Assembly (NCBI GenBank): GCA_016748015.1 | Contig: JAAOMT010000034.1 | Location: 372,001-436,000 of the forward strand | DNA: 64,000 bases | Origin: Geosiphon pyriformis uo1 | Taxonomy: Eukaryota > Fungi > Glomeromycota | Reading direction: 5' to 3' | In this document: positions 22,648-54,337 of the stretch, piece by piece | How the letters are laid out: every line of letters starts with the position of its first letter | Numbering within the stretch: position 1 is the stretch's first letter | Notes under the pieces: generated by a model | Database searches by the model: none | Seen by the model: the letters and a program-made list of their open reading frames with translations, nothing else | Told to the model about the DNA's origin: nothing | Position numbers and translations under genes: made by a program

Positions 22648-23623
22648 TGTTACCAGACGAAATTAGAGATATTATTTAGCATGAAATTATCTTTATAATT
22701 CCTATCATTAATTAGCATATATTATTGTTCAAAATTATCACTTATTACATTAGCAAAATGTCCAAAATTATTATTTAATTAATAATCCAATTTGTATATA
22801 ACATAAATATAACCTAATTGCAATGATTAATCATGCAATATCCTGAACTATGTAACATTCAAAAAGTTCGCTGAAATTTGTAGAAATTCACTGAAATAAT
22901 TGATAGTTTACCAAAATATCTAATAGTTTGCAGAAATAACTTGTAGTTTACCAAAATGTATCTTTAGTTCAATGAAATTGTAGAAAATAGCAGAGTTCAA
23001 GTTCAGAGAATAGTGTTATGACAAGTTGTATAAAAGAAGAGCTTCTCTCTTCGAGAAAATGTATCTTACTTCAGATTTAACAATTAGAATCATTTTTTAC
23101 ACACAAAAACAAAATAAATATCAAATAATTCAAAAAACCAAATTCTTTAATTATTGCACTTGGAAAATTCTCAAAACCCAACTAACGTTTTAAAATTGAT
23201 TAGCTACCAATTTCAATAAACTGTTAGTGACTCCAGGCCTGGATTAAAAACAATTTCCTTGACAGAATTCAATTTTCTTTTACATTTCTTTTATTTTTCT
23301 TTTATTTTCTTATTATAATCATTAGGATAACCTACAGACGAGATTTCTGTAGAAGAGTTGACTTTCACAGCAAAGTAACTACACATTTTTAGTGAGCTTC
23401 CAGACGAGCAATTCCTGGGAAAGAGTTGATGTTTATTACAACGTAACTAAGCAACTGGCACAGAATTGGTCATTCTACTTATAAGCTCAGCAGTTCAAAT
23501 TATAAGAGATAATTTGAAGATAAATTCAGTTATTGGAGGTTTAACTACTTCTAAAAAACGTGAATTTACAGCAAACAGGCATCAATAACCATTAAAAAAA
23601 GAGACCAAAAACTTCCGGTAACA
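22648..23623 (+). repeat. 5' LTR of element A (976 bp)
   Basis: Matches 41369-42349. TATAAAA at 23029-23035, AATAAA at 23215-23220 followed by a U-rich tract. Confidence 0.97.
22867..22976 (+). promoter_or_regulatory. U3 array of six TTCGCCGAA-like palindromes at 20/20/20/20/21-nt spacing, upstream of the TATA box
   Basis: Units start at 22867, 22887, 22907, 22927, 22947 and 22968. Equivalent arrays occur in the A, B, C and E LTRs; intact TTCGCCGAA is seen at 41608, 53576 and 53596. The enhancer role is inferred. Confidence 0.65.
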
Positions 23624-23625
23624 TT

Positions 23626-23640
23626 TGGTGCTCTCTCATA
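23626..23640 (+). other. Primer-binding site of element A
   Basis: TGGTGCTCTC starts 2 nt after the LTR and is complementary to a tRNA ending ...GAGAGCACCA. The same motif is in B (34899 down), C (45767) and D (59630, decayed). The tRNA species cannot be assigned. Confidence 0.85.
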
Positions 23641-26028
23641 GAAATAACACAGTAACAACAACTTCAAAAGTGGTGATTCAAACAGATTCAAGAACTCTAG
23701 AGTATTATCAGTCAATCTACACTCACTGTAAGCAGAGATTTAACATCCTAGACGGAATTGAAACATTCAAGAAAACACTTTACCAGTACATTGAAAATCG
23801 CATCAACAATTATCTTTTTGGAGACTACAATATTTCAGAAGTTAGACACAACTTATATGAAAGCTTAATACATCACTCTCGTCTAAACACTCAGGATTTT
23901 AACAGTCAAACACTTGAAACATACTTCCAAGAACTCAACTTCAATATCATTCAGTATTGTAAAGAGAATTACCCAGTAGAACAGAAATTTTCTCTTAGTT
24001 TTGAATTGGAAACAGAAGAAGGAAAAGGAAAAAGGAAACAAAAACTCAAAACTACTCCCAATACACCTAAAACCACTGCCAAACATTTACAAACTCCAGA
24101 ACAAGGAACCAGCTTTAAATTACCACTCTTAATCACACCATTTCCAGCTTCACTTGCTCAACCGCAAACACCAAGCTCACTACTTATTCAGTTTTCAAGA
24201 ATAGAAGATTTTCAGTCACCCAAAAGCCTTATTCAACAACAGGAACCAATATTAACCAGCACAAACCTTATTGACTACTTAACAGAAAATCAAAGTGAAG
24301 AGACCGAATCAGAACAAGAAACAGAAGACTCAGAAAACGAAGAAGAAATGGCCTCCACATATATTGCAAAAATTCCTGAGTTCACAGAAGAAGACAGCGA
24401 AACCAGTTCTCAAGAATGACTTGACAAAGTCTCAAAAGCAGAAGATGCAAATGGTTGGAATGCTGCCAGAATGTTAAAAGCAATTTCATACTTCTTACAA
24501 AAAACGGCTGGTGAATGGTTTGAAAACTTGGAAGTCCCATCAGAACACTGGAAAGCATTCAAAACTGCTTTTCTAGAACAGTTTACTGACAATAACACTT
24601 CCATTACCCTTTGAAATCAGTTCCGAAATATCAAGCAAGAACCAAGTGAATTAGTTATGACCTATTTTGGGAAATTCAACAAACTGTTTAGAAGGATTTG
24701 CCAATTAGAAACCAATGAATACTACTCCAATGCACAAATCTTGGATCAATTCATTGCTGAACTAAAAGACAAACTTATCAAGAAAGTTAGCCCACATGCA
24801 CCAGAAGATTTAGCCACTGCTATTCAACAGGCAAAAAACTATGAAATAGCCATAGAAGAAGCCAACTGTACCAAACTTGTTAACCTGGCTATTGGAGAAA
24901 CCAGCTCAGCAGCTGAAGAAAAGATTGACCAATTAACCAAGAAAGTTGAAAACTATTTCACCAACCAACAGCAACAACAGCAGCCACAGTAATTACAACA
25001 ATCACAAAGATACCAACCCCCACAACAATGCAATCAAAACAACTTCGGACCACCATCCAACAACCAAATCCAAAATTGTCATTATTGTGGAATTCCAGGA
25101 CACTGAAAACGTGATTGTAGAAAATTGCAATGAGACCAACAACAGAGAAATAATCAATGTTATTCCCAACCACAACAATCATATTATCCACCACCACCAG
25201 CTCAATATTTACCAAGACCACAATATCCAAACCACTATTATCAACCTGCTTCACAACCAATCCAACAACAGTATCAACAATCATCCAAATCACAATATCA
25301 AGTGCCAGCTAGAAGATTGATTCAACATAATCAATTTACACCACAAAACCGTTTTTCAACAAACAACAACAGATTAAATTCCAACAACCAATTAACCACT
25401 CAAAATTCGAATCAACATAGACCCACATACTATTACACTCAACCCAGTTATCTTACAATACCAAAGGAATCAAATTTTCAGTAAACTGCACTTTTTGAAG
25501 GTGAAGCTGTAGCACCAAGACAAAACCCTTTCAACAATACTATCCCACCAGCCAGAATTGCCTGAAATGCCAATCTTTCAGACATCTTTCCATTCGAATT
25601 TGAAGCCAATGAATCACCATCTCTACTCAGCAATGTAGCAGTTAATGAACAAAAAGCTATTACAGCAATGTATACTGAAGCTGAAGTAGAAGGAAAACAA
25701 ATTTGCTTAATATTAGACAGTGAATCTGCTGGAAGTATTATCACCTACCAATTAATACAACAGCTTCAACAAACTGTTGACAGACCAGCTCAAACTGTCA
25801 TCGTTATGACAGATGGTATGAAAAAGACACCAGTAGAAGAAATTGATAATTTTCCATTCACTATTGATGGAATCACTATTCCAATTAAAGTTTTAGTCAT
25901 GGATGCACCCCAATACCAAGCTCTCGTCGGAAATAATTGGTTTCTCAAGGCCAATGCAAATTTAGATTGGGAAACTCAGGAATTAAAAATCTTATATTAA
26001 GGACAACACACTATAGTATCTGTTATAT

Positions 26029-27017
26029 TGTTACTGGAGGTTTTTGGTTTCTTTTCTTAAATGTTGTTGATGTTGATTTGCTGTGAATTCATGTTTCCAG
26101 GAAGTAGTTGAACCTCCAGTAACTGAATTTATCTTCAAATTATTTCCTATAATTTGAACTGCTGGGCTTATAAGTAGAATGGCCAATTTCATGCCAGTTG
26201 CTTTGTGTAGTTACATTGTAGTAAACATCAACTTTTTCCCAGAAATTGCTTGTCTGGAAGCTCACTAAAAATGTGTAGTTACTTTGCTGTGAAAGTCAAC
26301 TCTTCTACAGAAATCTCGTCTATAGGCTACCTTAATGATTATAATAAGAAAACAAAAAAAAGAAAATAAAAAAAATATAAAAAAAATAGAATTCTGTCAA
26401 GAGAAACATTTTCTATTCAGGCCTGGAGTCACTAACAGTTTGCTGAAATTGGTAGCTAATCAATTTCAAAATGTTAGTTGGGTTTTTGGAGATTTTCTAA
26501 GTGCAATATTTAAAGAAATTGGTTTTTCGAATTATTTGATATTTATTTCTTTTTGTGTGTATAGGAATGGTTCTAAGTGATAAATCTAAAGTAAGATAAG
26601 ATATATTTTCTCAAAGAGAAAAGCTCTTCTTTTATACAATTTGTTGTAACACTATTTTATAAACTTGAACTTTGCTATTTTCTACAATTTTGCTGAACTA
26701 AAAATACATTTTGGCGAACTACAAGTTATTTCTGCGAACTATTAGATATTTTGGTAAACTATCAATTATTTCGGCAAATTTCTACAAATTTTGGCGAACT
26801 TTTTGAATGTTATATAGTTTGGAGTATTGCATGATTGATCATCACAATTAGGTTACATTTGTGTTATATACAAATTGGGTTATTAATTAAATAATAATTT
26901 CGGATATTTTGTTAATGTAATAAGTGATAATTTGAAATAATAATATATGCTAATTAATAATAAGATTTATAAGGGTAATTTCATGCTAAACAATATCTCT
27001 AATTTCGTCTGGTAACA
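26029..27017 (-). repeat. 3' LTR of element B
   Basis: TGTTAC...GGTAACA termini, matches 34902-35890. Confidence 0.96.
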
Positions 27018-27705
27018 TAACCTTCTTCTTAAAACTAAGCTCCATTGAAGTCCAAGTACTGTCTGTAATTTCCAGATAATAATCCAAAATTATTAAAGAA
27101 ATTTGGTCTGAAAATTGTTGAAATTTCAGTTCTGTAAGCTTTCCAATGTATTGAATTTTCAAAGGTTGTAAAATTGGGTTTTGTAAGACGTTTTCACAAG
27201 TGTAGAATAAGTCATAAAGTCTAAGAGCAGCTCTGAGCTTGTAATGACTGTTTGTTGGTCCAGATGTTGTTTTGAATTCATTGTGGAGTTGTTTCTGAAT
27301 AGCTTCTTTTGTGAGGTTTGCTGTTGTAAGTTCCAGTTTTTGTTCATAGAGTGTTTTTTCAATGTGAAAATATCTATATATTGGGGGGTATTTGCTGTTT
27401 TCTTTATTAAGACACAGTTGAAGTTTTTGTTGAATAGTAGCATTTAGTGGAACACTAATAGGAGTGAGTAATAAGTTTTCTCTTAAAGCAAGCTTCAAAA
27501 GTTCTGATAGGTAAATTCCAGAATAACTTCTTGTGTTTTTTCTATAAGAGTGATACTTCCGTGAATTTGGGGCTAAATTTGTAACTACTCCTGTTTGGGT
27601 ATAATTAATGTGGTTTTCAGTAATAGTAATGGATAATTTGGGTATTGTTTTTAAAGCTAGCATTAGTTTTTGAGATAATTGTTGAATATTTTGAGGGATA
27701 GTCAT
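26986..27705 (-). CDS. Element B accessory ORF3, 239 aa, unknown function
   Basis: Intact, closely similar to 40681-41400. Confidence 0.85.
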   Translation of the reverse strand: MTIPQNIQQLSQKLMLALKTIPKLSITITENHINYTQTGVVTNLAPNSRKYHSYRKNTRSYSGIYLSELLKLALRENLLLTPISVPLNATIQQKLQLCLNKENSKYPPIYRYFHIEKTLYEQKLELTTANLTKEAIQKQLHNEFKTTSGPTNSHYKLRAALRLYDLFYTCENVLQNPILQPLKIQYIGKLTELKFQQFSDQISLIILDYYLEITDSTWTSMELSFKKKVMLPDEIRDIV

Positions 27706-27857
27706 TATAAAAATTGGAATGAAAAGAACTAGATTGAATTTATTTTTGATATATAAGGTTTTTATGTTATTTTTGTCTTCCAGTGTGTTTTGTTTTGTTT
27801 TTGTTTTTGTAAAATCATTTTTTATAAATTATAAAAGAATAACTATAGTAAATTAAA

Positions 27858-29243
27858 TTAAGTGTTCAAGTTTGGAGATTGTTCAATGACAACTATTGGT
27901 TCTAAGTTTCGGGGAATATCTTCGGGATTGATTAAAGGAGAATGTGTACCAATTTGTGGAATTAATGGTTCAGGATTGTTTCTGGAATTATAGTGTTTCA
28001 AACAATCTCCATGTGCAACTTTTGCTAGGATTTTGTTATCAAGTCTTAGCTTGTATGATCCATTGCCTAGAACTTTATGGATAAAGAATGGTTCATCCCA
28101 TTTATTTTCAAATTTCCCACTCCATTGTTTTTCAGCTTTAGTTCTGTGTAAAAAAACTTTGTTTCCAATTTTAAATTTATTGGTGACTGGTGGCAATTTG
28201 TTGTCATGCCATTTTTTTTGTTGAGCTTGGGAGTGTTCAATATGGGTGGCTGTTATTCGTCGTTTTCTTTCCAATGTGCTAAGAAGATTGTAGACTCTTC
28301 ATCAAAGTGTTTCCTGAAAGTTTTTTTTATTGATTGGCTGCACTGAATATGGTTCCACAGTAAAATTAATTGGTAACATTGCTGTCCTTCCATAGGTTAA
28401 ATCAAATAGTGTGTGTTTTGTGGTATCTTGTTTTAGTGTCTTATATGCTAGTAACACTGATGGAATAAAGATATCCCATTCTTGCTCAAAATCGGTTGAG
28501 ATTTTGGCTAATGATTTACACAGTGTCCTATTGAAATGTTCTACAAGCCCATTTGTTTGTGAATGGTAGGGCAAAGATAATAGTCTTTTAACATTAAATT
28601 GTTCACAAATTTCCTGGATTAAATTGTTCACAAAATGTGTTCCTTGATCAGATAAAAGTTCTATTGGGCATCCATGTCTACAAATAATGTCTTCGTAGAT
28701 AAAGTTTGCTACTGATTTCACATCTGCTCATTGAATGGCTCTGACTTCAGGCCATTTGGTGAGATAGTTTACAGCTATTGCAATATAACGGTTTCCTTGG
28801 TTTGTGATAGGTAGTGGTCTGACTAAATTGATACCAACTCAGTCAAAAGACTGTTCAACTTTGATTGGGTTTAAAAGTTCTGTAGAGCAAGTTCCTCTTC
28901 TTCTTTGACAACTATCACAAGACTTAACATATTCATGAATGTTTTTTCTCATTTGAGGCCAAAAATAATATTCTAGTGTTCTCTGGGTGGTGCTGTCTTT
29001 TTCTAGGTGTGCTGATGAAAGATCTGAGTGCATGTTATATAAAATGGTTTTTTTTTCATGTTCTTGTATTAATCTGAGCGGACTGTCTGGATTTCTGAAG
29101 TTTTGATAATAAATAATGTTGTTGTGTAGAAAATATTGTTTGGCTTTTTGTTTTAATTGGTGTTTTTCATCTGAAAACCAATCTGTTGGGATTGTTAGTG
29201 TCTTCAAATATTGTTTAAGATTGTTGTAGTTTTCAGAGTTCAT
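27858..29243 (-). pseudogene. Element B stand-alone integrase ORF (461 codons)
   Basis: ATG at 29243 in context ACAATGA. HHCC, LLSDQGTHF, NGLVE and GPF-module remnant. Contains internal stops. Confidence 0.9.
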
Positions 29244-29299
29244 TGTTTGTTGTTGTTTTTTTTTTTACTGCTAATTCGAATGGGTGTTGGTTTTGTGTT

Positions 29300-32200
29300 C
29301 TAATCTTGCCTCATTCTTGAGAGACAATTAATATTGGTGTGGAATTTTTCTGGTTTGTGATGTACAATGTATTAGTAGTTGGCTAAAAATCCTGTCCATC
29401 GGGTTTGTTTGGCATTCAGCTGAGTGTTTTTGTTTTGAAGCCATTTGAGTCTAATATTATCAGTAATAATGTCGAATTCTTTAGGCCTGAGATAAAGGTT
29501 GAAGTGGTGTAAGGCCCAAATTATGGCTGCTGTTTCTAGTTCTGTGGCAGGGTAGTTTTTCTCAGCTGGTTTTAATGTTTTGCTAGTATAAGCAATTACT
29601 CACTCATTTCCATTGTCATCTAATTGAGATAAGATGGCACCAAAGGCAGTGTAAGAAGCATCTGTAGCTAGTCAAAATCGGTTACTGAAGTCTGGGTAGG
29701 TGAGAATTAGAGCTGTTGTCAGCTTTTTCTTGAGAATTTCAAAAGCTTTTTGGTGTTTTTCCATCCATTTGTATTCGACATTTTTAGTAGTGAGCTGGTT
29801 GAAGGGTTTTGGGATTTCTGAGAATCCTTTAATAAATTTTCGGTAATAGGATGCTAATCCAATAAATCCTCTTAATTCTGTGGTATTTCGTGGAGTTTTA
29901 AAGTTTTTGACAGTGCTGATTTTTCCGGGGTCTGGTTTAATTCCATCTTTGCTAACAATGTGACCAAGAAAGGCCAAACTTGTTTTTCCAAAGTAGCATT
30001 TTTTAATGTTCAGTTTCAATCCTGCTTTCTGTAATAGTTGAAAAACTTTGCACAGGTGTTTTAAGTGTAATTCAAAAGATGGTAAATAAACATCAGTATC
30101 ATCAAGATAGACAACTACTGATTTCCAAAGGAGGCCTTTGTAAACAATGTCCATGAGTTTTTGAAATGTTGCTGGTGCATTGCATAATCTGAAAGGTATT
30201 ACATTGAACTTGTAATTTCCTTCTTGAGTGGTGAATGCTGTTTTGGGGCAATCTTTAGGATCCATGGCAACTTGTCAGTATCTATTTTCTAAATCTAATG
30301 TTGAAAAGTATTTGGACTTCCCAAGAGCATCTAGCATGTTGTCAATTTGGGGAAGAGAGTAAGCATCTCCAATGGTGATACTGTTGAGTTGTCAATAATC
30401 AACACAAAATTGTATCTTTCCATTTTTCTTTTTAACTAAGACCACAGGTGAAGCCTATAGACTCATTAATGATTGAATAAGCCCATTGTTAAGCTCTTCT
30501 TGGATAAATTGGTAACTTTCTGGAGCAACTCAGTAGGCTTGTTGTTGCCTTGGTTTGGCATCTCCTGTATAGATTTAGTGTTGAACCAAATCAGTTCTTC
30601 CTAAGTCATTGTTGTTTTTGGCAAAGATATCGGCAAATTCTGCAATTAGCTCTTTAAGCTGGTTCTGTTGTTGTGATTCAAGTTGTCTTATGTTGATTCG
30701 AGATAGTTTTTCTATGACAACATGGTAGTTTTTAGAGCTGGGGTTTGGATTGATTTTTGGTAGTAAATGTCCAATAATTTCAGAGAAATCAGGGACTGTT
30801 TGGAGTAATTCTTGTTGAAAGATATTACTGTGAATAATTCCAATTTCTAAGTTATTTAATAAAACTATGGGGAAATTGTTGGGATTGTAAAAAGTAATTC
30901 GGATTTTCTTTGTTCCTTCTGGAATATAAATGTTTGGGATCGAGATATTATATTCCAAGCAGATTTGTTCATTAGACTCAAAAATTTTGTTGTGTGGTTG
31001 TTGGCTTTTCACAAGTGTAAATTTCAGGGTGTTCTTCAAAGGATGAAATGGTAATTGGTTGTGGAAGTCGTAAAATCTGGTGAGATTCTTTCTGTTCATT
31101 GAGGGGTATGTTTACTGGAACTGTAAATCATTCAGTTGAACCAAAACCTTGGGTTCTTTTTTCACTTTTTCCCAATAGTTCTTTTTGATTGACTAATTGT
31201 AAACCCAAAATGTTGATTAAGAGTAAATAAATAGCTTGGGCAATTTTCTCAGCATGTTCAATCTTAAATGGCTTGTCAGTTTCATTTTGGAGTATTATTG
31301 TTATGTTACCAGTATATCCAACATTGATTATTCCTTCTCTAACATTGATTCCTTTGCTTGCCAGAGAGGACCAGGAGGTAATTTGAACTATTGCTTCTGG
31401 CAGAATTTCGAAAGCAATTTTAAGGTTGATTTTTGTAAGAAATTTGGGTTTGAGAACAAGTGTATTCTTGTCTAAATATCTTAGGTCATATCCAGCATCA
31501 CTTTTATGTGCTTTTTTGGGTTTTATTCCTTGTCCATTGTTGTTGAAGTATTTGAGTTGTGAAGCAGACTGATTTTTGATAAGATAGATGGATGTGGCTT
31601 TTATTTTTTCTGTTGCTTCAAGTTCTCCAAATTCAATTTTATATTCGTCACTTTTACTGGGTAATGGAATGCTAAGGACATAGCATTCAGAACACCATTG
31701 TTCATCACAAGACATTATGCATTCCTCACATAATTTAATGTTTATTTGCTCTAGCTGTTAAGCTTGAGCTTTTTTGGTTAGGTAGGTGTGACTGGCAATT
31801 TGGTGATATACTTCTATTTCATCTTTGTAGTTGTATTCAGCAATTTCAAAGGTGTATGCAATGTATTCTGATTCTTTCATTTGATGAATATTTTCTTGAG
31901 TGGTTCCATTGATTAAAGCCATTGCTAGATCAAAAATCATTTTGGCATCGTAAGGGTAATGGTACAGTTTGTTGAGAGCGCTGTTGTAAGCAGCATTAAA
32001 AAGTGTTCCTCTTTTGACTTTTTCCGAAATTGATAAAGCATATTGGCAGGTTTGATCACAGACTCTTCCTCTTATTGCTACATCAATCCAATTGCATTCT
32101 TCTGGTAGCATATCTTCACAAGTCAAACAAGAAGTATTGTCCTATTTTCCACTTCTTTTTATTAGGTGGCCCTATCGTTCTCTGTGGCAAGTCTTGCAGT

Positions 32201-34856
32201 AATAACAAGTATGATTTTTATATTCTTCTTCAGGTGAAATGCAGGCTCTCATTGATAAAAGCTTCTTGTGGCAATCTTTGCATTTAAGTAGAATGTAGGG
32301 GCGTCATTTCCTTGGTTCAGACTTTGAGTAAGGGATATTCTATCCAGGAGTTTCAGGTTCAGAGTGTGGAGTAAAATGTTCTTGTTCAGTTTCATTGGCC
32401 CAATTGGACATTGATCCAAGAGCCATGAATGTTTTGATTATTGGTTTTTCTTCTTCTGGTTCAAATTCAAAAGCCGGGGCTTTTTTGGAGTGTTTGTTGA
32501 ATGTACCACAAGTGGCAGGTACTCAGACGTGTTGTCCTTAGTAGGAGATTGTTAACTCTTATGTCTCCCAACTCAGATTAGCATTGGCTTTTTGGAGCCA
32601 ATCATTTCTGATGAAAGCTTGGTATTGGGGAGCATTCATGACCAGAACTTTGACTGGAATGGTAATTCCATCAATTGTGAATGGGAAGTTGTCAATCTCT
32701 CCTACTGGAGTCTTTTTTATGCCATCAGCAGTGACAATGATTGTCTGAGCTGGTTGGTCAACATTTCTTTTTAGCTGCTGCATCAATTGATATGTGATAA
32801 TGCTTCTGGCAGATCCACTGTCTAAGATCAAGCAAATTGGCTTTTTTTCTACTTCAGCTTCTATGTATATTGCAGTGATGGCTTTTTGCTTGTTAGCTGC
32901 TGCATTGCTAAGCAAGAATAGTGATTCATTTGCTTCAAATTTGAAAGGGAATATATCTGAAAGGTTGGCGTTTTCAGCAATTCTGGCTGGTAGGATTATG
33001 ATAAAAGTATAGGAAGGGTTTTGTTGTTGTGCTGCAGCCCTACCTTCCGACAGTGCAGTATGGTGAAAATTCTGTTCTTCAGGTATTGTAAGATAGCTAG
33101 GTTGAGTATGATAGTAGTTGGGTCTTGGTTGAGCTGAATTTTGGGGAACCAATTGGTTGTTCAAATTGGTTCTATTGTTGTTTACTTGGTATCAGTTTTG
33201 TGATGTGAATTGATTTTGTGGAATTAATCTTCGAGCAGGCACTTGATAATATTGTGTGGGTGGTTGTTGGTATTGCTGTTGAATTGGCTGTGGGGTGGGC
33301 TGATAATAGTTACTTTGGTATTGGAGTCTTGGTGGATAGTAAGCTGGTGGTAGTAGTTGATAATAAGATTGCTGTGGTGGAGAGTAATGTTGATTACTTC
33401 TATTTTGTTGATCTTGTTGTAGCTTTCTGCAATCTCTTTTCCAGTGGCCAGGGATTCTACAGTAATGGCAATTCTGAGGCTGGTTATTAGAAAATGATGC
33501 AAAATTATTTTGATTTCGTTTTTGGGATGGTTGATATCTTTGGGGTTGCTGTTGTTGTTGGTTGGTGAAATAGTTTTCAACTTTTTTAGTTAATTGGTCA
33601 ATCTTTTTTTCAGCTGCTGAGCTGGTTTCTCCAATAGCCAGATTAACAAGTTTGGTACGGTTGGCTTCTTCTATGGCCATTTCATAGTTTTTCATCTGTT
33701 GAATAGCAGTGGCTAAATCTTCTGGTGCATATGAGCAAACTTTCTTAATGAGTTTGTCTTTTAGTCCAGCAATGAATTGATCCAAGATTTGTGCATTGGA
33801 GTAGTATTCATTGGTTTCCAATTGGTGAATCCTTTTAAGCAGTTTGTTAAATTTTCCAAGATAGGTCATAATTGATTCACTTGGTTCTTGCTTGATATTT
33901 TGGAACCAATTTCGAAGGGTAATGGAAGTGTTATTGTCAGTGAACTGTTCTAGAAAAGCAGTTTTGAATGCTTCCCAGTGTTCTGGTAAGGCTTCCAAGT
34001 TTTCAAACCATTCACCAGCCATTCCTTGTAATAAATATGAAATTGCTTTTAACATTCTGGCAGTGTTCCAACCATTTGCATCTCCTGCTTTTGAGACTTT
34101 GTCAAGCCATTCTTGAGGACTGGTTTCGCTGTCTTTTTCTGTGAACTCAGGGATTTTTGCAATATATGTGGAGGCCATTTCTTTTTCATTTTCTGAGTCT
34201 TCTGTTTCTTGTTCTGATTCAGTTTCTTCACTTTGATTTTCTGCTAAGTAGTCAATAAGGTTTGTGCTGATTAATATTGGTTTCTGTTGTTGAATAGAGC
34301 TTTTGGGTGACTGAAAATCTTCTATTCTTAAAAACCGAATAAGTGGCGAGCTTGGTGTTTGCAGTTGAGCAAGTGAAGCTAAAAATGGTGTGATTGAGAG
34401 TGGTAATTTAAAGCTGGTTCTTTGTTCTGGAGTTTGTAAATGTTTGGCAGTGGTTTTAGGTGTATTGGAAGTAGTTCTGAGTTTTTGTTTCCTTTTTCCT
34501 TTTCCTTCTTCTGTTTCCAATTCAAAACTAAGAGAAAATTTCTGTTTTACTAGGTAATTCTCTTTACAATACTGAATGATATTGAAGTTGAGTTCTTGGA
34601 AGTATGTTTCAAGTGTTTGACTGTTAAAATCCTGAGTGTTTAGACAAGAGTGATGTATTAAGCTTTCATATAAGTTGTGTCTAACTTCTGAAATGTTGTA
34701 ATTTCTAAAAAGATAATTGTTGATGCGATTTTCAATGTATTGGTAAAGTGTTTTCTTGAATGTTTTAATTCCGTCTGAGATGTTAAATTTCTGCTTGCAG
34801 TGAGTGTAGATTGACTGGTAATACTCTAGAGTTGTTGCGTCTGGTGTGGTCACCAC
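29300..34856 (-). pseudogene. Element B polyprotein: N-extension, Gag, protease, Cys-rich domain, dUTPase, RT, RNase H
   Basis: GTG at 34856 and ATG at 34178. CHYCRIPGHWKRDC, ILDSGS, DAGYDL...GYTGNI...IAQ...QGFGST, YLDD. Ends SRMRQD-TAG at 29302-29300. Gag, PR, Cys domain and dUTPase fragments are all in one frame. Confidence 0.92.
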
Positions 34857-34901
34857 TTTAAAGTTGTTTTTGCTGTGTTGTTTCTGTAGAAGAGCACCAA
34901 A

Positions 34902-35890
34902 TGTTACCAGAAGTTTTGGGTCTCTTTTTTTAAATGTTGTTAATGATGATTTGCTGTGAATTCACGTTTCCAGGAAGTAGTTGGACCTCCAGTAACTGAA
35001 TTTATCTTCAAATTGTTTTCTATAATTTGAACTGCTGGGCTTATAAGTGGAATGACCAATTCTATGCCAGTTGCTTTGTGTAGTTACATTGTAGTAAATG
35101 TCAACTCTTTCCCAGAAATTGCTCGTCTGAAAGCTCACTAAAAATGTGTAGTTACTTTGCTGTGAAAGTCAACTCTTCTATAAGAATCTCATCTGTAGGC
35201 TACCTTAATGATTATAATAAGAAAATAAAAGAAAGAAAATAAAAGAAATATAAAAGAAATAGAATTCTGTCAAGAGAAACGTTTTCTATCCAGATCTGGA
35301 GTTACTAACAGTTTACTGAAATTGGTAGTTAATCAATTTCAAAATGTTAGTTGGGTTTTTGGAGATTTTCTAAGTGCAATATTTAAAGAAATTGGTTTTT
35401 CGAATTATTTGATATTTATTTCTTTTTGTGTGTATAGGAATGGTTCTAAGTGATAAATCTAAAGTAAGATAAGATATATTTTCTCGAAAAAAGAAGCTCT
35501 TCTTTTATACAATTTGTCGTAACACTATTTTATGAACTTGAACTTTGCTATTTTCTACAATTTTGCTGAACTAAAGATACATTTTGGCAAATTACAAGTT
35601 ATTTCTGCAAACTATTAGATATTTTGGTGAACTATCAATTATTTCAGCAAATTTCTACAAATTTCAGTGAACTTTTTGAATGTTGCATAGTTCGGGGTAT
35701 TGCATGATTGATCATCACAATTAGGTTACATTTATGTTATGTACAAATTGGGTTATTAATTAAATGATAATTTCGGACATTTTGTTAATGTAATAAGTAA
35801 TAATTTGAAATAATAATATATGCTAATTAATGATAAAAATTATAAAGATAATTTCATGCTAAATAATATCTCTAATTTTGTCTAATAACA
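34902..35890 (-). repeat. 5' LTR of element B
   Basis: Followed on the minus strand by PBS TTTGGTGCTCT. Confidence 0.96.
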
Positions 35891-40680: not shown

Positions 40681-41400
40681 ATGACTATCCCTCAAAATAT
40701 TCAACAAATATCTCAAAAATTAATGCTAGCTTTAAAAACAATACCCAAATTATTTATCACTATTACAGGAAAACATATTAATTATACCCAAACAGAAATA
40801 GTTGTCAATTTAGCCCCAAATTCCCGAAATTATCACCCCTACAAAAAGAACACAAGAAGTTATTCTGGAATTTATCTACCAGAACTTTTGAAGCTTGCTT
40901 TAAGAGAAAATTTAATGTTCATTCCTATTAGTATTTCACCAAATGCTACTATTCAACAAAAACTTCAACTGTGTCTTAATGAAAAAAACCATGACTATAC
41001 TCCAATATATAGATATTTCTACATTGAAAAAACACTTCATGAACGAAAATGGGAGCTTACAGCAGCAAATCTCACAAAAGAAGCTATTCAGAAACAACTA
41101 CACAATAAATTCAAAACAACAGCTGGACTTACAAACAGTTACTATAAACTAAGAGCTGCTCTTAGACTTTATGACCTATTCCACATCTGTGAAAACGTCC
41201 TACAAAACCCAATTTTACAACCTTTAAAGATTCAATACATTGGAAAGCTCACAGAACTGAAATTTCAACAATTTTCAGACCAAATTTCTTTAATAATTTT
41301 GGATTATTATCTGGAAATTACAGACAGTACTTGGACTTTGATGGAGTTCAGTCTTGAGGAGGAAGTTATGTTACCAGACAAAATTAGAGATATTATTTAG
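40681..41400 (+). CDS. Element A accessory ORF3, 239 aa, unknown function, overlapping PPT and 3' LTR
   Basis: Intact ATG-to-stop frame. Homologues sit at the same position in B and C. Confidence 0.85.
   Translation: MTIPQNIQQISQKLMLALKTIPKLFITITGKHINYTQTEIVVNLAPNSRNYHPYKKNTRSYSGIYLPELLKLALRENLMFIPISISPNATIQQKLQLCLNEKNHDYTPIYRYFYIEKTLHERKWELTAANLTKEAIQKQLHNKFKTTAGLTNSYYKLRAALRLYDLFHICENVLQNPILQPLKIQYIGKLTELKFQQFSDQISLIILDYYLEITDSTWTLMEFSLEEEVMLPDKIRDII
41356..41365 (+). other. Polypurine tract of element A
   Basis: GAGGAGGAAG then TTA then the LTR. Equivalents at 27021-27030 (B, -) and 53355-53364 (C). Confidence 0.85.
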
Positions 41401-42349
41401 CATGAAATTATCTTTATAATTCCTATCATTAATTAGCATATATTATTATTCAAAATTATTACTCATTACATTAGCAAAATGTCCAAAATTATCATTTAAT
41501 TAATAACTCAATTTGTACATAACATAAATGTAACCTAATTGCAATGATTAATCATGCAATATCCCGAACTATATAACATTCAAAAAGTTTGCCAAAATTT
41601 GTAGAAATTCGCCGAAATAATTGATAGTTCACTGAAATATCTAATAGTTCACAGAAATAACTTGTAGTTCACCAAAATGTATTTTTAGTTCAACAAAATT
41701 GTAGAAAATAGCAGAGTTCAAGTTCAGAGAATAGTGTTATGACAAGTTGTATAAAAGAAGAGCTTTTCTCTTTGAGAAAATGTATCTTACTTTAGATTTA
41801 ACAATTAGAATCATTCTTTACACACAAAAACAAAATAAATATCAAATAATTTGAAAAACCAAATTCTTTAATTATTACACTTGGAAAATTCTCAAAACCC
41901 AACTAACATTTTGAAATTGATTAGCTACCAATTTCAATAAACTGTTAGTGACTCCAGGCCTGAATCAAAAATAATTTCCTTGACAGAATTCAATTTTCTT
42001 TTACATTTCTTTTATTTTTCTTTTATTTTCTTATCATAATCATTAAGGTAATCTACAGACAAAATTCCTGTAAAAGAGTTGATTTTCACAGCAAAGTAAC
42101 TACACATTTTTAGTGAGCTTTCAGATGAGCAATTCCTGGGAAAAAGTTGACGTTTACTACAATGTAACTACATAAAGCAACTGGCATGGAATTGGCCATT
42201 CCACTTATAAGCCCAGCAGTTCAAATTATAAGAGATAATTTGAAGATAAATTCAATTATTGGAGGTTTAACTACTTCTAAAAAACGTGAATTTACAGCAA
42301 ACAAACATCAATAACCATTAAAAAAAGAGACCAAAAACCTCCAGTAACA
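41369..42349 (+). repeat. 3' LTR of element A (981 bp)
   Basis: Direct repeat of 22648-23623, differing by transitions and a 5-nt indel. Confidence 0.97.
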
Positions 42350-44813: not shown

Positions 44814-45764
44814 TGTTACCAGTGGAATTTTAGCTATTAATTAGCACGAAATTATCTTCATAATTCCTATTATTAATTAGCATATTATTATCATTTCGAT
44901 TATCACTTTTTAAATTAGCCAAATTATCAAATATCATTACTTAATCAATAATCCGATTTGTACTCTAGAAATTAAGATGATCAAATTACACAATATCCTG
45001 AACCATTTAACATAGTCAAAATTCGCCGAAATAATCAATAGTTCAGTGAAATAACTTGTAAATTTACTGAAATGTATCTTTAGTTCACCCAAATTGTAGC
45101 AAAGAGAAAAGTGCAAGTTCAAAAACTAGTACTACAACAAGTTGTATAAAAAAAAAGCTTTTTTCTTCAAGAAAATGTATCCTTCCCATATTTTACCATA
45201 GTATCTTACTTTAGATATCTTAATTGAAACAAATCACTTTTTACAAAATCAAATAAAAATTAAATATTCGAAAACCAAATCCTCAAAATTATTACACTTG
45301 AAATTCCCTCAAACACAACTAACGTTTTGAAATTGATTAGCTACCAATTTCAATAAGCTGTTAGTGACTCCAGGCCTGGATAAAAAACGTTTCCCTTGAT
45401 AAAATCCTATTTCTTTTACATTTTTTTTATTTTTCTTTTCTTTTCTTATTACAATCATTAGAGTAGCCTACAGACAAAATTCTTGTAGAAAAGTTGACTT
45501 TCACAGCAAAGTAACTACACATTTTTAGTGAGCTTCCAGACAAGCAATTCCTGGGAAAGAATTGATGTTTACTACAACCTAACTACATAAAGTAACTGGC
45601 AAGGAATTGGCCATTTCACTTATAAGCCCAGCAGTTCAAATTATAGGAGATAATTTGAAAATAAATTCAGTTATTGGAGGTTCAACTACTTCTAGAAAAC
45701 ATGAATTTGCAACCAACAGACATTTACAACATTCAAGAAAAGAGACCAAAAACCTCTGATAACA
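44814..45764 (+). repeat. 5' LTR of element C (951 bp)
   Basis: Matches 53368-54337 except that it lacks one 20-nt U3 repeat unit. Confidence 0.96.
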
Positions 45765-45809
45765 TTTGGTGCTCTCCCACAGAAATAACACAGCAACAAC
45801 AAATTCAAA

Positions 45810-48800
45810 GTGGCGACCACACTAGACACAACAACTCTAGAGTATTATCAGTCAATTTACACCCACTGCAAGCAAAGATTCAACATCCCAGACGGAATTG
45901 AAGTTGTCAAGAAATCAGTATACCAATACATTAAAAATTGCATCAACAATTATCTTTTTAGAAACTACAACATTTCAGAAGTTAGAAACAACTTCTACAA
46001 TAATTTAGTGCACTATTCACAATTGGAAACAGAAGACCTGAACAGTGAAACACTTGCTACCTACTTCCAAGAACTTAATTTTAATATTATTGAGTATTGT
46101 GAAGAAAAATACCCAGTACAGTCCAAATACTCTTTTAACTTTAAATCAGAAACAGAGACAAGCAACAAAGACAAACAAAAAGTGAAACAATACTCAAGAA
46201 CCACTCCAAACACTTCAATACTACCAAAGACAACTGCCAAACACTTGCAAACACCTGAACAAAGAACCAGTGTCAAATTACCACTTTTTATTACACTATT
46301 TCCAATTTCATTTGTTCAACCACAAACACCAAGTTTACCACTTAACCGTTTTTCTAGACCAAAAGATTTTCAGTCACCTAGAAATCCTATTCAAAAACAA
46401 GAAGCAATATCAACAAGTGCCAATATCATTAATTACTTACAAGAAAACGAAAGTAATTATTCAGAAAGCTTGGAAAGTGAAGAAACTGAATCAGAACCAG
46501 AAGAAATCACAAGAAATAAAGAAAAAATGGCAACTGCTTACATTGCAAAAATTCCAGAATTCACTGGTGAAGACAATAAACCAGTTCTCAAGAATGGCTT
46601 GACAAAGTTCAAAAAGCAAGAAATGCAAATGGTTGGATTATAGCAAGAATGCTCAAAGCAATTTTCTACTTTCTCTAAGAAACAGCAGAAGAATAGGTTG
46701 AAAATTTAGAAGAACTATTTGAGAACTGGCAAGCATTCAAAGATGCTTTTTTATAACAATTCACTAACAATAACATCTTTATCACTCTCCACAATCACTT
46801 TTGCAATATCAAACAAGAAACATTTGAAACTGTCATAACCTATCTTGAGAGATTTAACAAACTTTTTCAACGAATTTGACAATTGGAAACCAATGACTAC
46901 TATTCTAATGCTCAGATTCTGGATCAGTTTATAGCAGGATTAAAAGACAAATTGATTAAGAAAGTTTATCCACATGCACTAGCAGACTTAGTAACTGCCA
47001 TCAAACATGCAAAAAACTATGAAATGGCTATGGAAGAAGCAAACCACACCAAACTCGTTAACCTAGCTATTGGAGAAACCAGTTCAGTAGCTGAAGAGAA
47101 GATAGACCAACTCACAAAGAAGGTTAAAAGCTACTTTACAAACCAACAACAACAGCAACAACAACCACAAAGATATCAACCCTCACAATGACACAACCAA
47201 AACAATTTTGGATTACCATCCAACAACCAATCTCAAAATTGTCATTATTGTGGAATTCCAGGATACTGGAAACAAGATTGTAGAAAATTACAAAGAGATC
47301 AACAAAACAGGAGTAATTAATGTTACTTTTCACCACAACAATCTTATTATCAATCTTTACCACCAACCTATTATTCACCAAGACCACAAAATCAAAACAG
47401 TTACTATCAACCAGCTTTACAACCAATGCAGCAACAATATCAGCAATTTTTACCAATTCAGCCATATCAGACACCACTCACTTAACAATATCAAGTACCA
47501 GCAAGAAGATTGGTTCAACATAACCAATTCACATCCCAAAATCAATTTCAGAATAACAACAACAGAATCAATTTAAATAACCAGTTGGTTCCCCAAAATT
47601 CTGGTCAGCAAAGACCCAATCACTATTACACTTAATCCAGTTATCTTACAATACCAGAGGAATTGAATTTTCAACAACCTGCATTTTCTGAAGGTAAAGT
47701 TGTAGCACCTAAATCAAACCCTTCCAACAACACTATTCCACCAGCTTAAATTGCCCAAAATGCCAACCTTTCAGATATATTCTCATTCGAATTTGAAGCA
47801 AATAAATCACCATTCTTGCTTAGTAATGCAGCAGCTAATGAACAAAAAGCTATCACTGCCATGTACACTAAAGCTATAGTAGAAAGAAAACCCATCTGAC
47901 TAATTCTAGACAGTGGATCAGCTGGAAGTATTATTACCTACCAGTTAATACAACAGCTTCAAAGAACTGTTGACAGACCAGCCCAAACTGTAATTGTTAT
48001 AACAGATAGTATAAAAAAGACACCAATAGGAGAAATTAACAATTTTCTATTCACCATTGATAGAATCACCATTCCAGTCAAAGTTCTAGTCATGGATACA
48101 CCCCAATACCAAGCTCTGGTTGGAAATGATTGGCTTCTTAAGGCCAATGCAAACTTGGACTGGAAAACTCAGAAATTAAAAATCTTATACCAAGGACAAT
48201 ACACCATAGTACCTGCTATTTGTGGTACTTTTAACAAACAATCAGAAAAAGCCCCAGTATTTGAATTTAAAGAGAAAAAAGAAATGCCACTTACTAAAAC
48301 CTACATGGCTCTTGGATCAACATCCAATTGGGCTGAAGAAACAGAACAGGGGATTTTTGAAGAATTAAGAGGATGGAAGAAAGTTAGATATTTTACACCA
48401 GAACCACAGAAACAACCACTCTATATTCTACTCAAATACAAAGATTGCAATAAGAAACTTTCATCAATAAGAGCATGTATTTTTCCAGAAGAGAAATATG
48501 AAACTCGTACCTGTTACTTTTGCAAAGCATGCCATAGAGAACAATTTAGATCTCCAAAAAGAAGTGAAAAATAGGACAACACATTTTGCCTTACATGTGG
48601 AGATATGTTACCAGAAGAATACAACTGAATTGATGTTGCAATGAGAGGAGGAGTATGTAATCAAACCTGTCAATATGCTCTATCAATTTCGAAAAAAGTC
48701 AGAAGAGGAACACCATTTAATGCAGCATACAACAGTGCTCTCAATAAACTTTACCACTACTCTTATGATGCTGAAATGATTTTTGACCTAACAATGGCAT

Positions 48801-51063
48801 TGATCAATAGAGCCACCCAAAAAGATATCCACCAAATGAAAGAAGCTGAATATATTGAGTATACCATGGAATTAGCTGGATTTGATTATGAATATGAAGT
48901 AAAAATCTACCACCAAATTGCAAGCCACACATACTCGACTCAAGAAACTCAAATTCAACAATTAAAGCAAATGAACATTCAATTATGTGAAGAATGCATT
49001 ATGTCTTGTGATGACAAATAGTGTTCAGAATGCTATGCTCTTAGCATTTCCCTGCCAGAGGAAAATGATGAAAATGAAATTGAATTTGGAGTATCCGAAC
49101 TGGTAAAAAAAACTACCAACCACTCTTATCTATCTTCTTGAAAAGCAACCACCTCTACAACTTAAATATTTCGACAACCATGGCCAAGGAATCAGACCAA
49201 AAAAAGCACACGAAATTGATGCTGGATATGACTTAAGATATCCAGGAAAAGATACTTTGGTTCTCCAATCAAAGTCTTTGACAAAAATCAATCTCAAAAT
49301 CACTCTTGAAATTCCACCTAGAGCAATAGTTCAAATTGCATCCAAATCATCATTGGCAAGCAAAAAAATCAATGTTAAAGAAGGAGTTATATATGCAGGA
49401 TATACTGGAGATATTATTATCATGTTACAAAATAAAACAGACAAACCATTTAGGATTGAACCCCAATAATTAACCCATTGTCTTATTGAACAAACTAGAG
49501 ATTAGAATCATACACAGTAACATTTTTCAAGATGAAAACCCTCAAATTGTCTCTAATTTCATCGAAATTATAAGACATACACTACTTCCAAATCCAAACA
49601 TCATTTTTACTATTGAAAATTACCATCTTTTGAAAGAAAAACTCTCTCGAATCAATATGGGTTCCTTGAAACCCCAACAACAAAGACAATTGAAACAATT
49701 GATAGCTGAATTTGCAGATATATTTGCAAAAGACAACAATAATCTTGGAAAAATGAATATTGTTTAACACCAAATCTATATAGGAGATGCTCCACCAAAA
49801 CGACAACAAACCTATCGAGTTCTACCTGCTAGCCACCAATTTATTAAAGAAGAGATCCAAAAAATGCTCAATAACGGATTGATTCAATCATCAAAAAGTT
49901 CATGGGCCTCATCAATAGTTTTTGTTAAAAAGAAAAACGGAAAAATCAGATTCTGTGTTAATTATTGACAATTGAATAGTGTTACAATTGGAGATGTCTA
50001 CCCTCTCTCAAAAATTGATAACATGTTAGATGCTTTAGGAAAAGCCAAATTCTTCTCAACTTTAGACTTGGAAAGTAAATACTGGCAAGTCAAAATGGAC
50101 CCAAAAGATAGACCCAAAACAGCATTCACCACTTAAAAAGGAAACTATGAATTCAATGTTATATCTTTTGGACTCTGCAATGCACCAGCAACATTTTAGC
50201 AACTTATAAATGTTGTCTATGAAGGACTCTTATGGCAATCAGTAGTTATCTACCTTGATGACACTAATGTATACTCACCAAGTCTTAAAGCCCATCTTAT
50301 CCACCTGCAAGAAGTTTTTTAACAATTACAAAAAGCAAGATTAAAGTTGAATATTGAGAAATGTCATTTTGGAAAAACAAGCTTGATCTTTCTTGGACAC
50401 ATAGTTAGTAAAAAAGGAGTCAAACCAAATCCAGGAACAATCAGTGCTGTCAAAAACTTTCAAACTCCCAGAAATACCACAGAACTATGAGGATTTGTAG
50501 GATTAGTCTCCTACTATTGGAAATTCATAAAGAGATTCTCAGAAATTGCCAAACTACTCAATTATCTTACCAACAAAAATGTGCCATACAAATGGACAAA
50601 AGAACAACAAAAAGCTTTTGAAACCCTCAAAACAAGATTGACAACAGTCCTAGTTCTTGCTTATTCAGACTTCAACAAACAGTTCTAACTAGCCACTGAT
50701 GTTTTACACATAGCTTTTGGTACCATTCTATCACAATTGGATGAAAATGGCCAGGAACAAGTCATTGTCTATGTTAGTAAAACACTCAAGCCAACAGAAC
50801 TCAAATATGGCTCAACAGAACTAGAAACTGCCACAGTCATTTGGGCTCTCAAACACTTTCAACAATACCTGAAGAATAAAAAAGAGTTTGACATCATAAT
50901 TGATAATATTGGCCTCAAATGGCTCAATAAAAACAAAAAAAAACAAAGTGCCAAACAGTCTCAATGGAATGATTTTTTAGCAGACTACAAATATATAGTA
51001 CATCACAAACCAGGAAAACTACACACCAATATTGACAGCCTTTCAAGAATGAGACAATATTAA
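45810..51063 (+). pseudogene. Element C polyprotein (dUTPase partly deleted)
   Basis: GTG at 45810 and ATG at 46527. CCHC remnant, ILDSGS, Cys-rich domain, DAGYDL, YLDD, RNase H. Ends SRMRQY-TAA. Confidence 0.9.
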
Positions 51064-51130
51064 TACCAAAATCAATACCAACAAAACACCAACAAACTTA
51101 ACAGCAAAACAAATAACAAAATCAACAACA

Positions 51131-52516
51131 ATAGATCTAAAAAACTACAACAACATCAAAAACTATTTGGAGACTCTCACCATGCCAGAAAATTGGTCTT
51201 CAAGTAAAAAACATTGATTACAATACCAATCCAAACAATATTTTATACACCACAACAAATTTTATTACAAGAATCATAGAAATCCAAACCAACCACTCAG
51301 ATTAGTACAAGAGAATGAAAAAGAAACAATCTTATACAACATGCACACAAATCCTTCTTCAGCACACTTGGAAAGAGATGGAACAATACAAAGAACTTTT
51401 GAACATTACTTTTGGCCTTAAATGCAAAAAGACATTCGACAATATATAGAATCTTGTAATAGTTGTCAAAGAAAAAGAGAAACTCACCCCACAGAACCTT
51501 TAAATCCAATCAAAGTTGGACAACCTCTTGACAGAGTTGGAATTGATTTAATCGGACCATTACCTATCACAACTCAAGGAAATCATTATATTGCAGTTGC
51601 AGTAAATTATCTCACCAAATAGCCTGAAGCTAGAGCCATCTAAAGAACAGATGCAAAATCAGTAGTAAATTTTATCTATGAAGACATTATTTGTAGACAT
51701 GGATGCCCAATTAAACTTTTATCTGATCAAGAAACACATTTTGTGAACAACTTGATACAAGAAATTTGCGAACAATTTAATGTCAAAAGACCTCTATTAT
51801 TACCTTATTACCTCCAAACAAATGGATTTGTAGAACATTTCAACAGAACATTGTGTGAATCTTTAGCCAAAGTTTCAACAGATTTTGAGCAAAAATGGGA
51901 TATTTTTATTCCATCAGTGTTACTAGCATACAGAACACTAAAACAAGATACTATGAAACACACACCATTTGATCTTACTTATGGAAGGACAGCAACATTA
52001 CCAATTAATTTCACAGTAGAAACATATCCTGTGCAACCAATTAATGAAGAGAACTTTCAAGAAACACTCCAAAGAAAGGCCTACACCTTTTTTAATACAC
52101 TGGAAGAAAAAAGAAAAATAGCAGCAACTCATATTGAACATTCTCAAGCTTAACAAAAAGAAAGACATGACAACAAATTACCACCTATAACCAACGAATT
52201 TAAAGTTGGAAATAAGGTTTTCTTACACAAAACTAAGGCTGAAAAACAATGGAGTGGAAAATTTGAAAACAAATGAGATGGACCATTTTATATTCATGAA
52301 ATTTTAGGCAATAGATTATACAAGTTAAGACTTAATGACAAAGTACTAGCAAAAGTTGTACATGGAAATAGATTGAAACACTATCATTTCAGAAACAATC
52401 CTGAACCATTAATTCCACAAATTGGTACACATTTCTCTTTAATTAATTCTGAAGATATTCCCCGAAATTTAAAACCAATAATTATAATAGAACAACAACC
52501 AAACTTGAACACTTAA
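51131..52516 (+). pseudogene. Element C stand-alone integrase ORF (461 codons)
   Basis: Same 1386-nt span as in A and B. VGIDLIGP, LLSD, NGFVE and GPF motifs. The start reads ATA. Confidence 0.88.
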
Positions 52517-52679
52517 TTCAACATAATTTTACAATAATCTTTTTAATAATACACAAAGACAAAAATAGTAAATAATTACAAAAACACCCAAAACCCAAAA
52601 ACAAATAAAACCCCATATTCAAAAAAATAATAATAATAATTTCTTTATTCTTCCTTTTCATTAATTAGTCAATTTTATC

Positions 52680-53387
52680 ATGATTATTCCCCGAAATATT
52701 CAACAAATATCCCAAAAATTAATGTTAGTCTTGAAAACACTTCCTAACTTATCCATAACGATTAATAGAAGTCAAATTAATTACATTCAGAAAGAAACCA
52801 CAGCCCCAATAGTAAATAATTCTCAGAACTATCCCTCTTATAGAAGAAAAACAAAAGGTCACTCTGAAAATAGGTTACCAGAACTTTTGAAGCAAGCACT
52901 AAAAAAAAACCTTTTAATTGCCCCTATTGACATTCTACCAAATGCCACAATGCAACAAAAACTTCTACTATTCCTCAATGAACAAAACAATAAACATACC
53001 CTTATATATAGATATTTTCATATTGAAAAAACACTTTATGAACGAAAACTGGAGCTTGAAGCAACCAACATTACTCCTGAGGCTATACAAAAACAAATTC
53101 ACAATGAATTCAAGACAGCAGCTGGACTAACAAACACTCGCTACAAACTTAGAGCAGCATTTAGACTCTATGATTTATTCAACATTTGTGAAAACATTCT
53201 ACAAAATCCAATACTCCATCCAATGAAGATTCAATACATTGGAAAGTTCACAGAACTGAAATTCCAACAATTTTCAGACCAGATCACTTCAATTATTTTG
53301 GACCACTATTTTAACATCACAGACAGTACTTGGACTTCAATGAAGCTCAGTTTTGAGGAGGAAATTATGTTACCAGTGGAATTTTAG
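52680..53387 (+). CDS. Element C accessory ORF3, 235 aa, unknown function
   Basis: Intact diverged homologue of the A/B ORF3 that ends inside the 3' LTR. Confidence 0.85.
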   Translation: MIIPRNIQQISQKLMLVLKTLPNLSITINRSQINYIQKETTAPIVNNSQNYPSYRRKTKGHSENRLPELLKQALKKNLLIAPIDILPNATMQQKLLLFLNEQNNKHTLIYRYFHIEKTLYERKLELEATNITPEAIQKQIHNEFKTAAGLTNTRYKLRAAFRLYDLFNICENILQNPILHPMKIQYIGKFTELKFQQFSDQITSIILDHYFNITDSTWTSMKLSFEEEIMLPVEF

Positions 53388-54337
53388 CTATTAATTAGCA
53401 CGAAATTATCTTCATAATTCCTATTATTAATTAGCATATTATTATCATTTCGATTATCACTTATTAAATTAGCCAAATTATCAAATATCATTACTCAATC
53501 AATAATCCGATTTGTACTCTAGAAATTAAGATGATCAAATTACACAATACCCTGAACCATTTAACATAGTCAAAATTCGCCGAAATTAATGAAAATTCGC
53601 CGAAATAATCAATAGTTCAGTGAAATAACTTGTAAATTCGCTGAAATGTATCTTTAGTTCACCCAAATTGTAGCAAAGAGAAAAGTGCAAGTTCAAAAAC
53701 TAGTACTACAACAAGTTGTATAAAAGAAGAGCTTTTCTCTTCAAGAAAATGTATTCTTCCCATATTTTACCATAGTATCTTACTTTAGATATCTTAATTG
53801 AAACAAATCACTTTTTACAAAATCAAATAAAAATTAAATATTCGAAAACCAAATCTTCAAAATTATTACACTTGAAATTCCCTCAAACACAACTAACATT
53901 TTGAAATTGATTAGCTACCAATTTCAATAAGCTGTCAGTGACTCCAGGCCTGGATAGAAAACGTTTTCCTTGATAAAATCCTATTTCTTTTACATTTCTT
54001 TTATTTTTATTTTTTTTTCTTATTACAATCATTAGGGTAGCCTACAGACAAGATTCTTGTAGAAGAGTTGACTTTCACAGCAAAGTAACTACACATTTTT
54101 AATGAGCTTCCAGACAAGCAATTCCTGGAAAAGAGTTAATGTTTACTACAACATAACTACATAAAGTAACTAGCAAGGAATTGGCCATTCCACTTATAAG
54201 CCCAGCAGTTCAAATTATAGGAGATAATTTGAAGATAAATTCAGTTACTGGAGGTTCAACTACTTCTAGAAAACGTGAATTTGCAACCAACAGACATTTA
54301 CAACATTCAAAAAAAGAGACCAAAACCTCCGGTAACA
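53368..54337 (+). repeat. 3' LTR of element C (970 bp)
   Basis: TGTTACC...GGTAACA termini. Confidence 0.96.

Follow-up and report, generated by a model that had tools for sequence, protein, structure and literature searches.

In long terminal repeat (LTR) retroelements and retroviruses, integrase (IN) enters the particle as part of Gag-Pol or Pol. In canonical Ty3/Gypsy elements it lies within the Pol polyprotein (PMC3248453). Here we describe an LTR element of the glomeromycete fungus Geosiphon pyriformis uo1 in which IN is almost certainly a separate gene, encoded in its own open reading frame (ORF) between a first ORF that ends with RNase H (ORF1) and a third ORF that runs into the 3' LTR (ORF3). 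The window, by which we mean the whole 64,000-nucleotide (nt) stretch analysed (contig JAAOMT010000034.1, positions 372,001 to 436,000, forward strand), holds three copies, A, B and C, and the 5' half of a distant relative, family D. Because its enzymes are Ty3-like but its IN does not lie within Pol, we class the element, from its sequence, as a Ty3/Gypsy-type variant. A lineage that succeeds at high copy number with a free IN must have other means of making, dosing and packaging the enzyme, and so allows a basic rule of how retroelements replicate to be put to the test. It would also supply reinitiation signals of natural fungal origin, along with a candidate for a new RNA element and a family of uncharacterised proteins.

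In foamy viruses the enzyme is made apart from Gag, with IN still inside Pol, and we know of no caulimovirus with an IN. Caulimoviruses use a polycistronic RNA and a self-encoded reinitiation factor, TAV (PMC5972666). The present lineage differs from both in that its IN is outside Pol and its ORF3, as modelled from one relative (L078), matches no viral fold. Stop-restart precedents with UAAUG or AUGA overlaps include CHV1, HvV190S and SART1 (PMC10275272), and reinitiation has been proposed across the 63-nt spacer of LINE-1 (PMC5972666). The present elements are probably like LINE-1 and SART1 ORF2, CHV1 and HvV190S, as excerpted, in reaching a long downstream ORF through a stop-start overlap or a spacer of ~60 nt; these precedents belong to the non-LTR elements or the RNA viruses, whereas the downstream cistron here is a DDE integrase.

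Neither a dUTPase nor an extra 3' ORF is new in itself. Among the dUTPase-bearing Ty3/Gypsy elements of fungi (PosPlaTy3-5, Phanerochaete, Tuber Tmt1) and the bdelloid Juno, Vesta and TelKA, a dUTPase between protease (PR) and reverse transcriptase (RT) (PMC2864245) and non-env ORF3s (PMC5408684) are known. In the excerpted descriptions, however, all of these elements keep IN within pol, and the ORF3 is of an env-like, GDSL or DEDDy type, with no match to the window ORF3. No LTR clade with a separate IN ORF appeared in the excerpts of the literature searched (including PMC11952901, PMC13468544, PMC11943222, PMC13524379, PMC5911963 and PMC2774666), a scope outside which Repbase, GyDB, subscription journals and supplements fall. 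The supplements of papers on transposable elements in arbuscular mycorrhizal fungi could hold such consensus models. In G. pyriformis, LTR elements account for 41.2% of the genome (PMC11952901), and annotation pipelines would rate elements with a split IN as broken.

Three insertions with one layout

Self-comparison of the window resolved three LTR elements. Copy A (22648-42349) consists of 22648-26028 and 35891-42349 on the plus strand and is interrupted by copy B (26029-35890, minus strand), which is nested inside it; copy C occupies 44814-54337 on the plus strand. Their LTRs end in TG..CA and lie at 22648-23623 and 41369-42349 in A, 34902-35890 (5') and 26029-27017 (3') in B, and 44814-45764 and 53368-54337 in C, with pair identities of 93.6%, 92.9% and 96.5% and differences that are almost exclusively transitions. 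The 4-bp target duplications are CTGT/CTGT, ATAT/ACGT (imperfect) and ATGT/ATGT, respectively. The three are independent, decayed insertions; all are dead, and many of their stops are of the C>T/G>A type. The self-comparison, the target duplications and a shared stop after RNase H (RH) bear out the original prediction that three independently inserted copies have one layout.

The copies carry the hallmarks of Ty3/Gypsy elements (Metaviridae, yeast Ty3): direct TG..CA LTRs, target-site duplication (imperfect in B), primer-binding site (PBS), polypurine tract (PPT), a CCHC Gag and the order PR-RT-RH-IN. Pfam matches run through capsid, CCHC, protease, dUTPase, RT, RNase H, H2C2, rve and SH3 domains, with PF03732, PF19259 and PF00098 covering the capsid and CCHC knuckle of Gag. 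Ty3 was also the best match among solved structures, at E 6e-99 for the RT-RH of a relative and E 1e-36 for a related IN. The elements depart from canonical Ty3/Gypsy in giving IN its own ORF (3/3 window copies and 22/22 junctions in relatives) and in a probable GUG start, a Cys-rich domain and an ORF3 that overlaps PPT and LTR. They are unlike chromoviruses in that the window IN has no chromodomain match, and unlike errantiviruses and other env-bearing elements in that the ORF3 of the window lineage is not a membrane glycoprotein.

Integrase is a separate gene

The frame of ORF1 closes after RH in every copy, with TAG at 39093 in A, TAG at 29302 in B and TAA at 51061 in C. A spacer of 49 nt (39096-39144), 56 nt (29244-29299) or 67 nt (51064-51130) follows; all three are A/C-rich, free of ATG and predicted to be unstructured (folding energy 0 kcal/mol), and they place IN in frames 1, 2 and 1. 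The IN ORF then spans 461 codons (1386 nt) in each copy without an indel (A, 39145-40530; B, 27858-29243, minus strand; C, 51131-52516) and encodes H2C2 and rve domains and, at its C-terminus, an SH3-like domain; no chromodomain was matched there. Its ATG is intact in B and has become ATA in A and C, and the copies carry five, four and six stops, with none of 12 stop positions common to all three. Pairwise ratios of nonsynonymous to synonymous substitution (dN/dS) were 0.21-0.23. The predicted 461-codon IN behind a non-coding spacer thus stood up in all copies, and a continuous RH-IN frame was found in 0/3 window copies and 0/22 junctions of relatives.

With the IN N-terminus as query for longer proteins, the only match was a stand-alone IN of 423 amino acids (aa) and no fused form, which is weak evidence. 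The DNA contigs of one sequencing run covered the junction, and among the 40 variants listed out of 106 there was none at the RH stop; with the spacer masked, this is not counted as evidence. A viral contig collection yielded no match to IN, the IN motif or the hairpin described below.

Relatives in metagenomes share the split

We gathered 94 metagenome loci (numbered with the prefix L) using a degenerate IN motif derived from the window lineage, so the set has no canonical control. RH and IN were split in all 22 loci that show both domains; four near-identical pairs reduce these to ~18 families. Two of them, L048 and L073, combine a stop-free ORF1 of 1606 and 1627 codons (Gag, PR, RT and RH) with a separate IN. 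As all 22 junctions are split, stop-free elements included, we take the split to be a trait of the lineage and not decay. The claim of a distinct lineage with a separate IN is thereby supported, and the lineage extends far beyond the G. pyriformis genome.

Only one junction, in L049, lacks an IN methionine. Among the other 21, six are stop-start junctions in which IN begins -8, -8, -4, -1, +2 and +2 nt from the ORF1 stop, six have spacers of 37-48 nt, and seven contain a hairpin within spacers of 64-149 nt or, after a premature stop, 429 nt; the remaining two measure 136 nt and, with inserted ORFs (L035), 1600 nt. A purine occupies position -3 in 25/26 distinct IN starts. None of the 94 loci matched a dUTPase, so this domain looks specific to the families in the window. 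In an unrooted IN tree without outgroup, the window copies formed a long separate branch (support 100/100).

The hairpin lies directly 5' of the IN ATG, between it and the ORF1 stop, in 14 loci (L005:187-221, L021, L027, L030, L039, L047, L048:5748-5782, L055, L058, L059, L060, L073, L078 and L018), and where the start is visible it ends from a few to ~16 nt upstream. Across 12 distinct rows, 99% of stem cells are paired and 4/8 pairs have changed on both sides; the covariation score was reached by 0/500 shuffles, the structure having been derived from these same sequences. In the same unrooted tree, hairpin loci fall together in a single IN clade of 10 rows (support 88/93). The motif had no Rfam match in nine loci and is absent from copies A, B and C. 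We regard it as a candidate new RNA element. Hairpin elements also have a Cys/His-containing extension of ~260-290 aa after RNase H, without a Pfam match.

ORF1 probably starts at GUG

From an inferred GTG to the RH stop, ORF1 measures 1853.3 codons in A, 1852.3 in B and 1751.3 in C. In copy A it is divided by the insertion of B into a 5' half with the N-terminal extension, capsid, CCHC and protease (23670-26028) and a 3' half with the Cys-rich domain, dUTPase, RT and RNase H (35891-39095, ending in TAG). Copy B spans 29300-34856 on the minus strand, GUG to TAG, with one private additional nucleotide near 30988, and copy C spans 45810-51063, GUG to TAA; it has lost 372 nt and has two 1-nt indels seen in neither of the others. 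In a three-way alignment, indels common to two copies were all multiples of 3 and those that break the frame were private; none of 52 internal stop positions was common to all three. The proposed frameshift-free ORF1 of about 1850 codons therefore holds for the length of A and B and for the absence of any shared frameshift; C is ~100 codons short, and private indels interrupt the frame.

No in-frame ATG occurs until 226-239 codons downstream of the GTG, which stands 45-46 nt after the LTR in the context AAA-GTG-G, and the distant family D has the identical context. ORF1 thus probably starts at GUG, as judged from sequence. The 226-239 ATG-free codons have dN/dS of 0.21-0.23 in the A/C and B/C comparisons. 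Two results speak against this start: the A/B comparison gave 0.56 in the GUG extension, and under synonymous shuffling the avoidance of ATG downstream of it did not reach significance. Apart from that A/B value for the Gag extension, pairwise dN/dS was 0.08-0.29 across all regions tested, and all three ORFs are under purifying selection.

A Cys-rich domain of ~230 aa separates protease and dUTPase (36063-36800 in A, 31600-32300 on the minus strand in B, 48400-49100 in C and 62636-63271 in family D). It is under purifying selection and had no Pfam match and no sequence match in the PDB; the Gag extension likewise had no PDB sequence match. Family D (59627-63617, plus strand) comprises a PBS, the GTG, capsid, protease, Cys-rich domain and the start of dUTPase, and is interrupted at 63618 by a C-type LTR. 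From capsid to dUTPase start it aligns with copy B in a single frame, in line with the prediction that it shares the 5' half.

ORF3 is a candidate integrase helper

Behind spacers of 150 nt (40531-40680), 152 nt (27706-27857, with one ATG out of frame) and 163 nt (52517-52679), ORF3 encodes 239, 239 and 235 aa in A (40681-41400), B (26986-27705, minus strand) and C (52680-53387). It is stop-free in all copies, as had been proposed, and passes through the PPT (41356-41368 in A) into the 3' LTR, with dN/dS of 0.22-0.29. A search with the window ORF3 gave 206 matches; among the 120 listed, 118 were named Geosiphon pyriformis and two were the window's own. The element family is present in this fungus at high copy number. 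When the full library was searched with a profile, 35 matches resulted, of which the more remote were further Geosiphon proteins and two proteins from metagenomes.

An ORF3 family of 130-165 aa follows IN in 30 of the 55 metagenome loci whose flank measures 350 nt or more. It often overlaps the IN stop (by -4, -11, -17 or -20 nt) and ends at the PPT, and its homologues include proteins of Rhizophagus irregularis and Glomus cerebriforme (four named among 38 matches), a low-ranking clue to host range. HHalign joined it to the window ORF3 over 121 columns with a probability of 60% and E 8e-5. Its profile alone did not match the window ORF3, so homology of the two is likely but not certain.

The ORF3 of L078 was modelled with confidence as all-helical (predicted local distance difference test, pLDDT, 85; 56-row alignment), and the window ORF3 gave a poor model (pLDDT 42). 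With Foldseek, the L078 model matched nothing in PDB or BFVD at E<=0.001, a result that falls short of establishing a new fold; its best VIA match had Z 5.0 and a root-mean-square deviation of 4.3 over 84 aligned residues. All matches in an Atlas search were <0.9. There was no consistent Pfam or PHROG match. A suspected resemblance to DUF1016/DUF3102 gained no support from the Pfam scan. The protein is mostly basic (isoelectric point >8 in 29/44 sequences) and none of the 44 sequences has a hydrophobic segment above 1.6 (window maximum 1.09); it is therefore not an envelope, and an env membrane glycoprotein was rejected on the absence of membrane segments. Tentatively, model and composition suggest a basic soluble helical protein that may serve as an IN adaptor or a nucleic-acid-binding helper.

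How the integrase may be expressed

On a narrow balance, termination-reinitiation on one RNA appears the likeliest way in which IN is made. The stop-start overlaps at both junctions of relatives, the conserved IN methionine with its purine at -3, and the short open spacers of the window copies all point to it. ORF1 would be translated from the GUG 45-46 nt past the LTR, and its own protease would cut out Gag, dUTPase and RT-RH. On the genome-length RNA, ribosomes would terminate after RNase H and some would traverse the short, unstructured A/C-rich spacer to reinitiate at the IN AUG, in the way suggested for LINE-1 and its 63-nt spacer; in relatives, stop-start overlaps or the hairpin would serve the same role. 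Reinitiation would keep IN scarcer than Gag, whereas a single frame would impose a 1:1 ratio. Without a Gag tether, IN would then depend either on cis loading onto the RNA that encodes it or on an adaptor, for which ORF3 is a candidate. ORF3 itself may come from a further round of reinitiation or be translated from a subgenomic RNA.

Several observations weigh against reinitiation. The spacers of L023, L024, L042, L043, L053 and L062 contain ATGs, and in L035 1.6 kb with two ORFs separates RH and IN. In L023 and L062 the 48-nt spacer preserves the frame and has no stop, and readthrough could therefore produce an RH-IN fusion in these two. Among relatives, a YAG stands 15 nt or less from the IN ATG in 19/29 cases, against 12.0 +/- 2.6 in shuffled sequences; this enrichment fits splicing, though most of it is due to TAG stops and the end of the hairpin. 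Spacer 2, which is AT-rich and 150-163 nt long, could act as a promoter.

These last two points favour a rather unlikely alternative, in which subgenomic RNAs from an internal promoter or from splicing yield IN, ORF3 or both. It may be likened to foamy viruses, whose Pol is made from spliced pol RNA, and to many env and ORF3 genes. The ORF3s of LTR elements, as excerpted, typically come from spliced messages (PMC5408684). However, the three copies share no AG in either spacer, neither spacer has a CTRAY branch motif, and stop-start overlaps at both junctions of relatives are not expected of separate transcripts. Internal ribosome entry, with the hairpin or the A/C-rich spacer recruiting ribosomes for IN independently of ORF1 termination, is distinctly unlikely: the conserved, covarying hairpin near the IN ATG of 14 loci, which follows one IN clade, speaks for it, but the window copies lack it, its structure was derived from those very sequences, and reinitiation in SART1 also uses structure 3' of the stop (PMC10275272).

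Programmed readthrough or frameshifting that joins RH and IN into an ordinary Pol-IN fusion is very improbable. The single TAG and open in-frame spacer of L023 and L062 would allow it, and TGA-CTA-C or TGA-CCA-C within ORF1 of five relatives suggests readthrough elsewhere in the clade. Yet spacer frames (1, 2, 1) and stop identity vary among A, B and C, the in-frame spacer of L015 contains two further stops, and the IN methionine is conserved in a Kozak-like context. Decay or assembly error of dead copies can be practically dismissed: every window copy is dead, with many C>T/G>A stops, but all three have the RH stop in common and not one of the 64 internal stop positions in ORF1 and IN, and the stop-free L048 and L073, equally split, contradict decay.

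A bolder extension of the reinitiation scheme, possible but on the doubtful side, is an undescribed deep fungal LTR clade tied to Glomeromycotina and truly polycistronic, in which one RNA would yield Gag-PR-RT-RH, a free IN and an ORF3 of new fold. Its starts would be tuned by the GUG, overlaps, readthrough and the RNA element, and ORF3 would load IN or, like TAV, promote reinitiation.

Other features of the window and of the relatives

The PBS of copy A (23626-23643, beginning TGG) is unmatched to a cognate tRNA, and no tRNA gene lies in the 64-kb window. Copies A and C landed at different points in two copies of one long interspersed nuclear element (LINE) family, which host them at 20390-22642/42352-44215 and 44360-44810/54341-58006, respectively; a further member at 5242-11210 (minus strand) has endonuclease, RT and RNase H. 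A host gene for the E2 subunit of a 2-oxoacid dehydrogenase occupies 11997-13360 (minus strand). An exact 1940-bp duplication (15022-16961 and 16982-18921) flanks a gap of 20 Ns and is probably an assembly artefact.

Among the relatives, one in-frame TGA with CTA-C or CCA-C directly after it stands within ORF1, before PR or RT, in L024:3552, L043, L032:780, L035 and L046:3109 (oriented coordinates), a context that we take to resemble a readthrough signal. An ORF with NUDIX and deoxynucleoside-kinase domains lies between RH and IN at L035:4503-5813 (minus strand), a NUDIX ORF follows IN at L020:1945-2886, with similar ORFs starting in L050 and L071, and an Mrr-type nuclease ORF follows IN at L041:822-1460. 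L055, L073, L070, L078 and L003 are head-to-tail tandems in which the next Gag starts ~1 kb past the IN stop.

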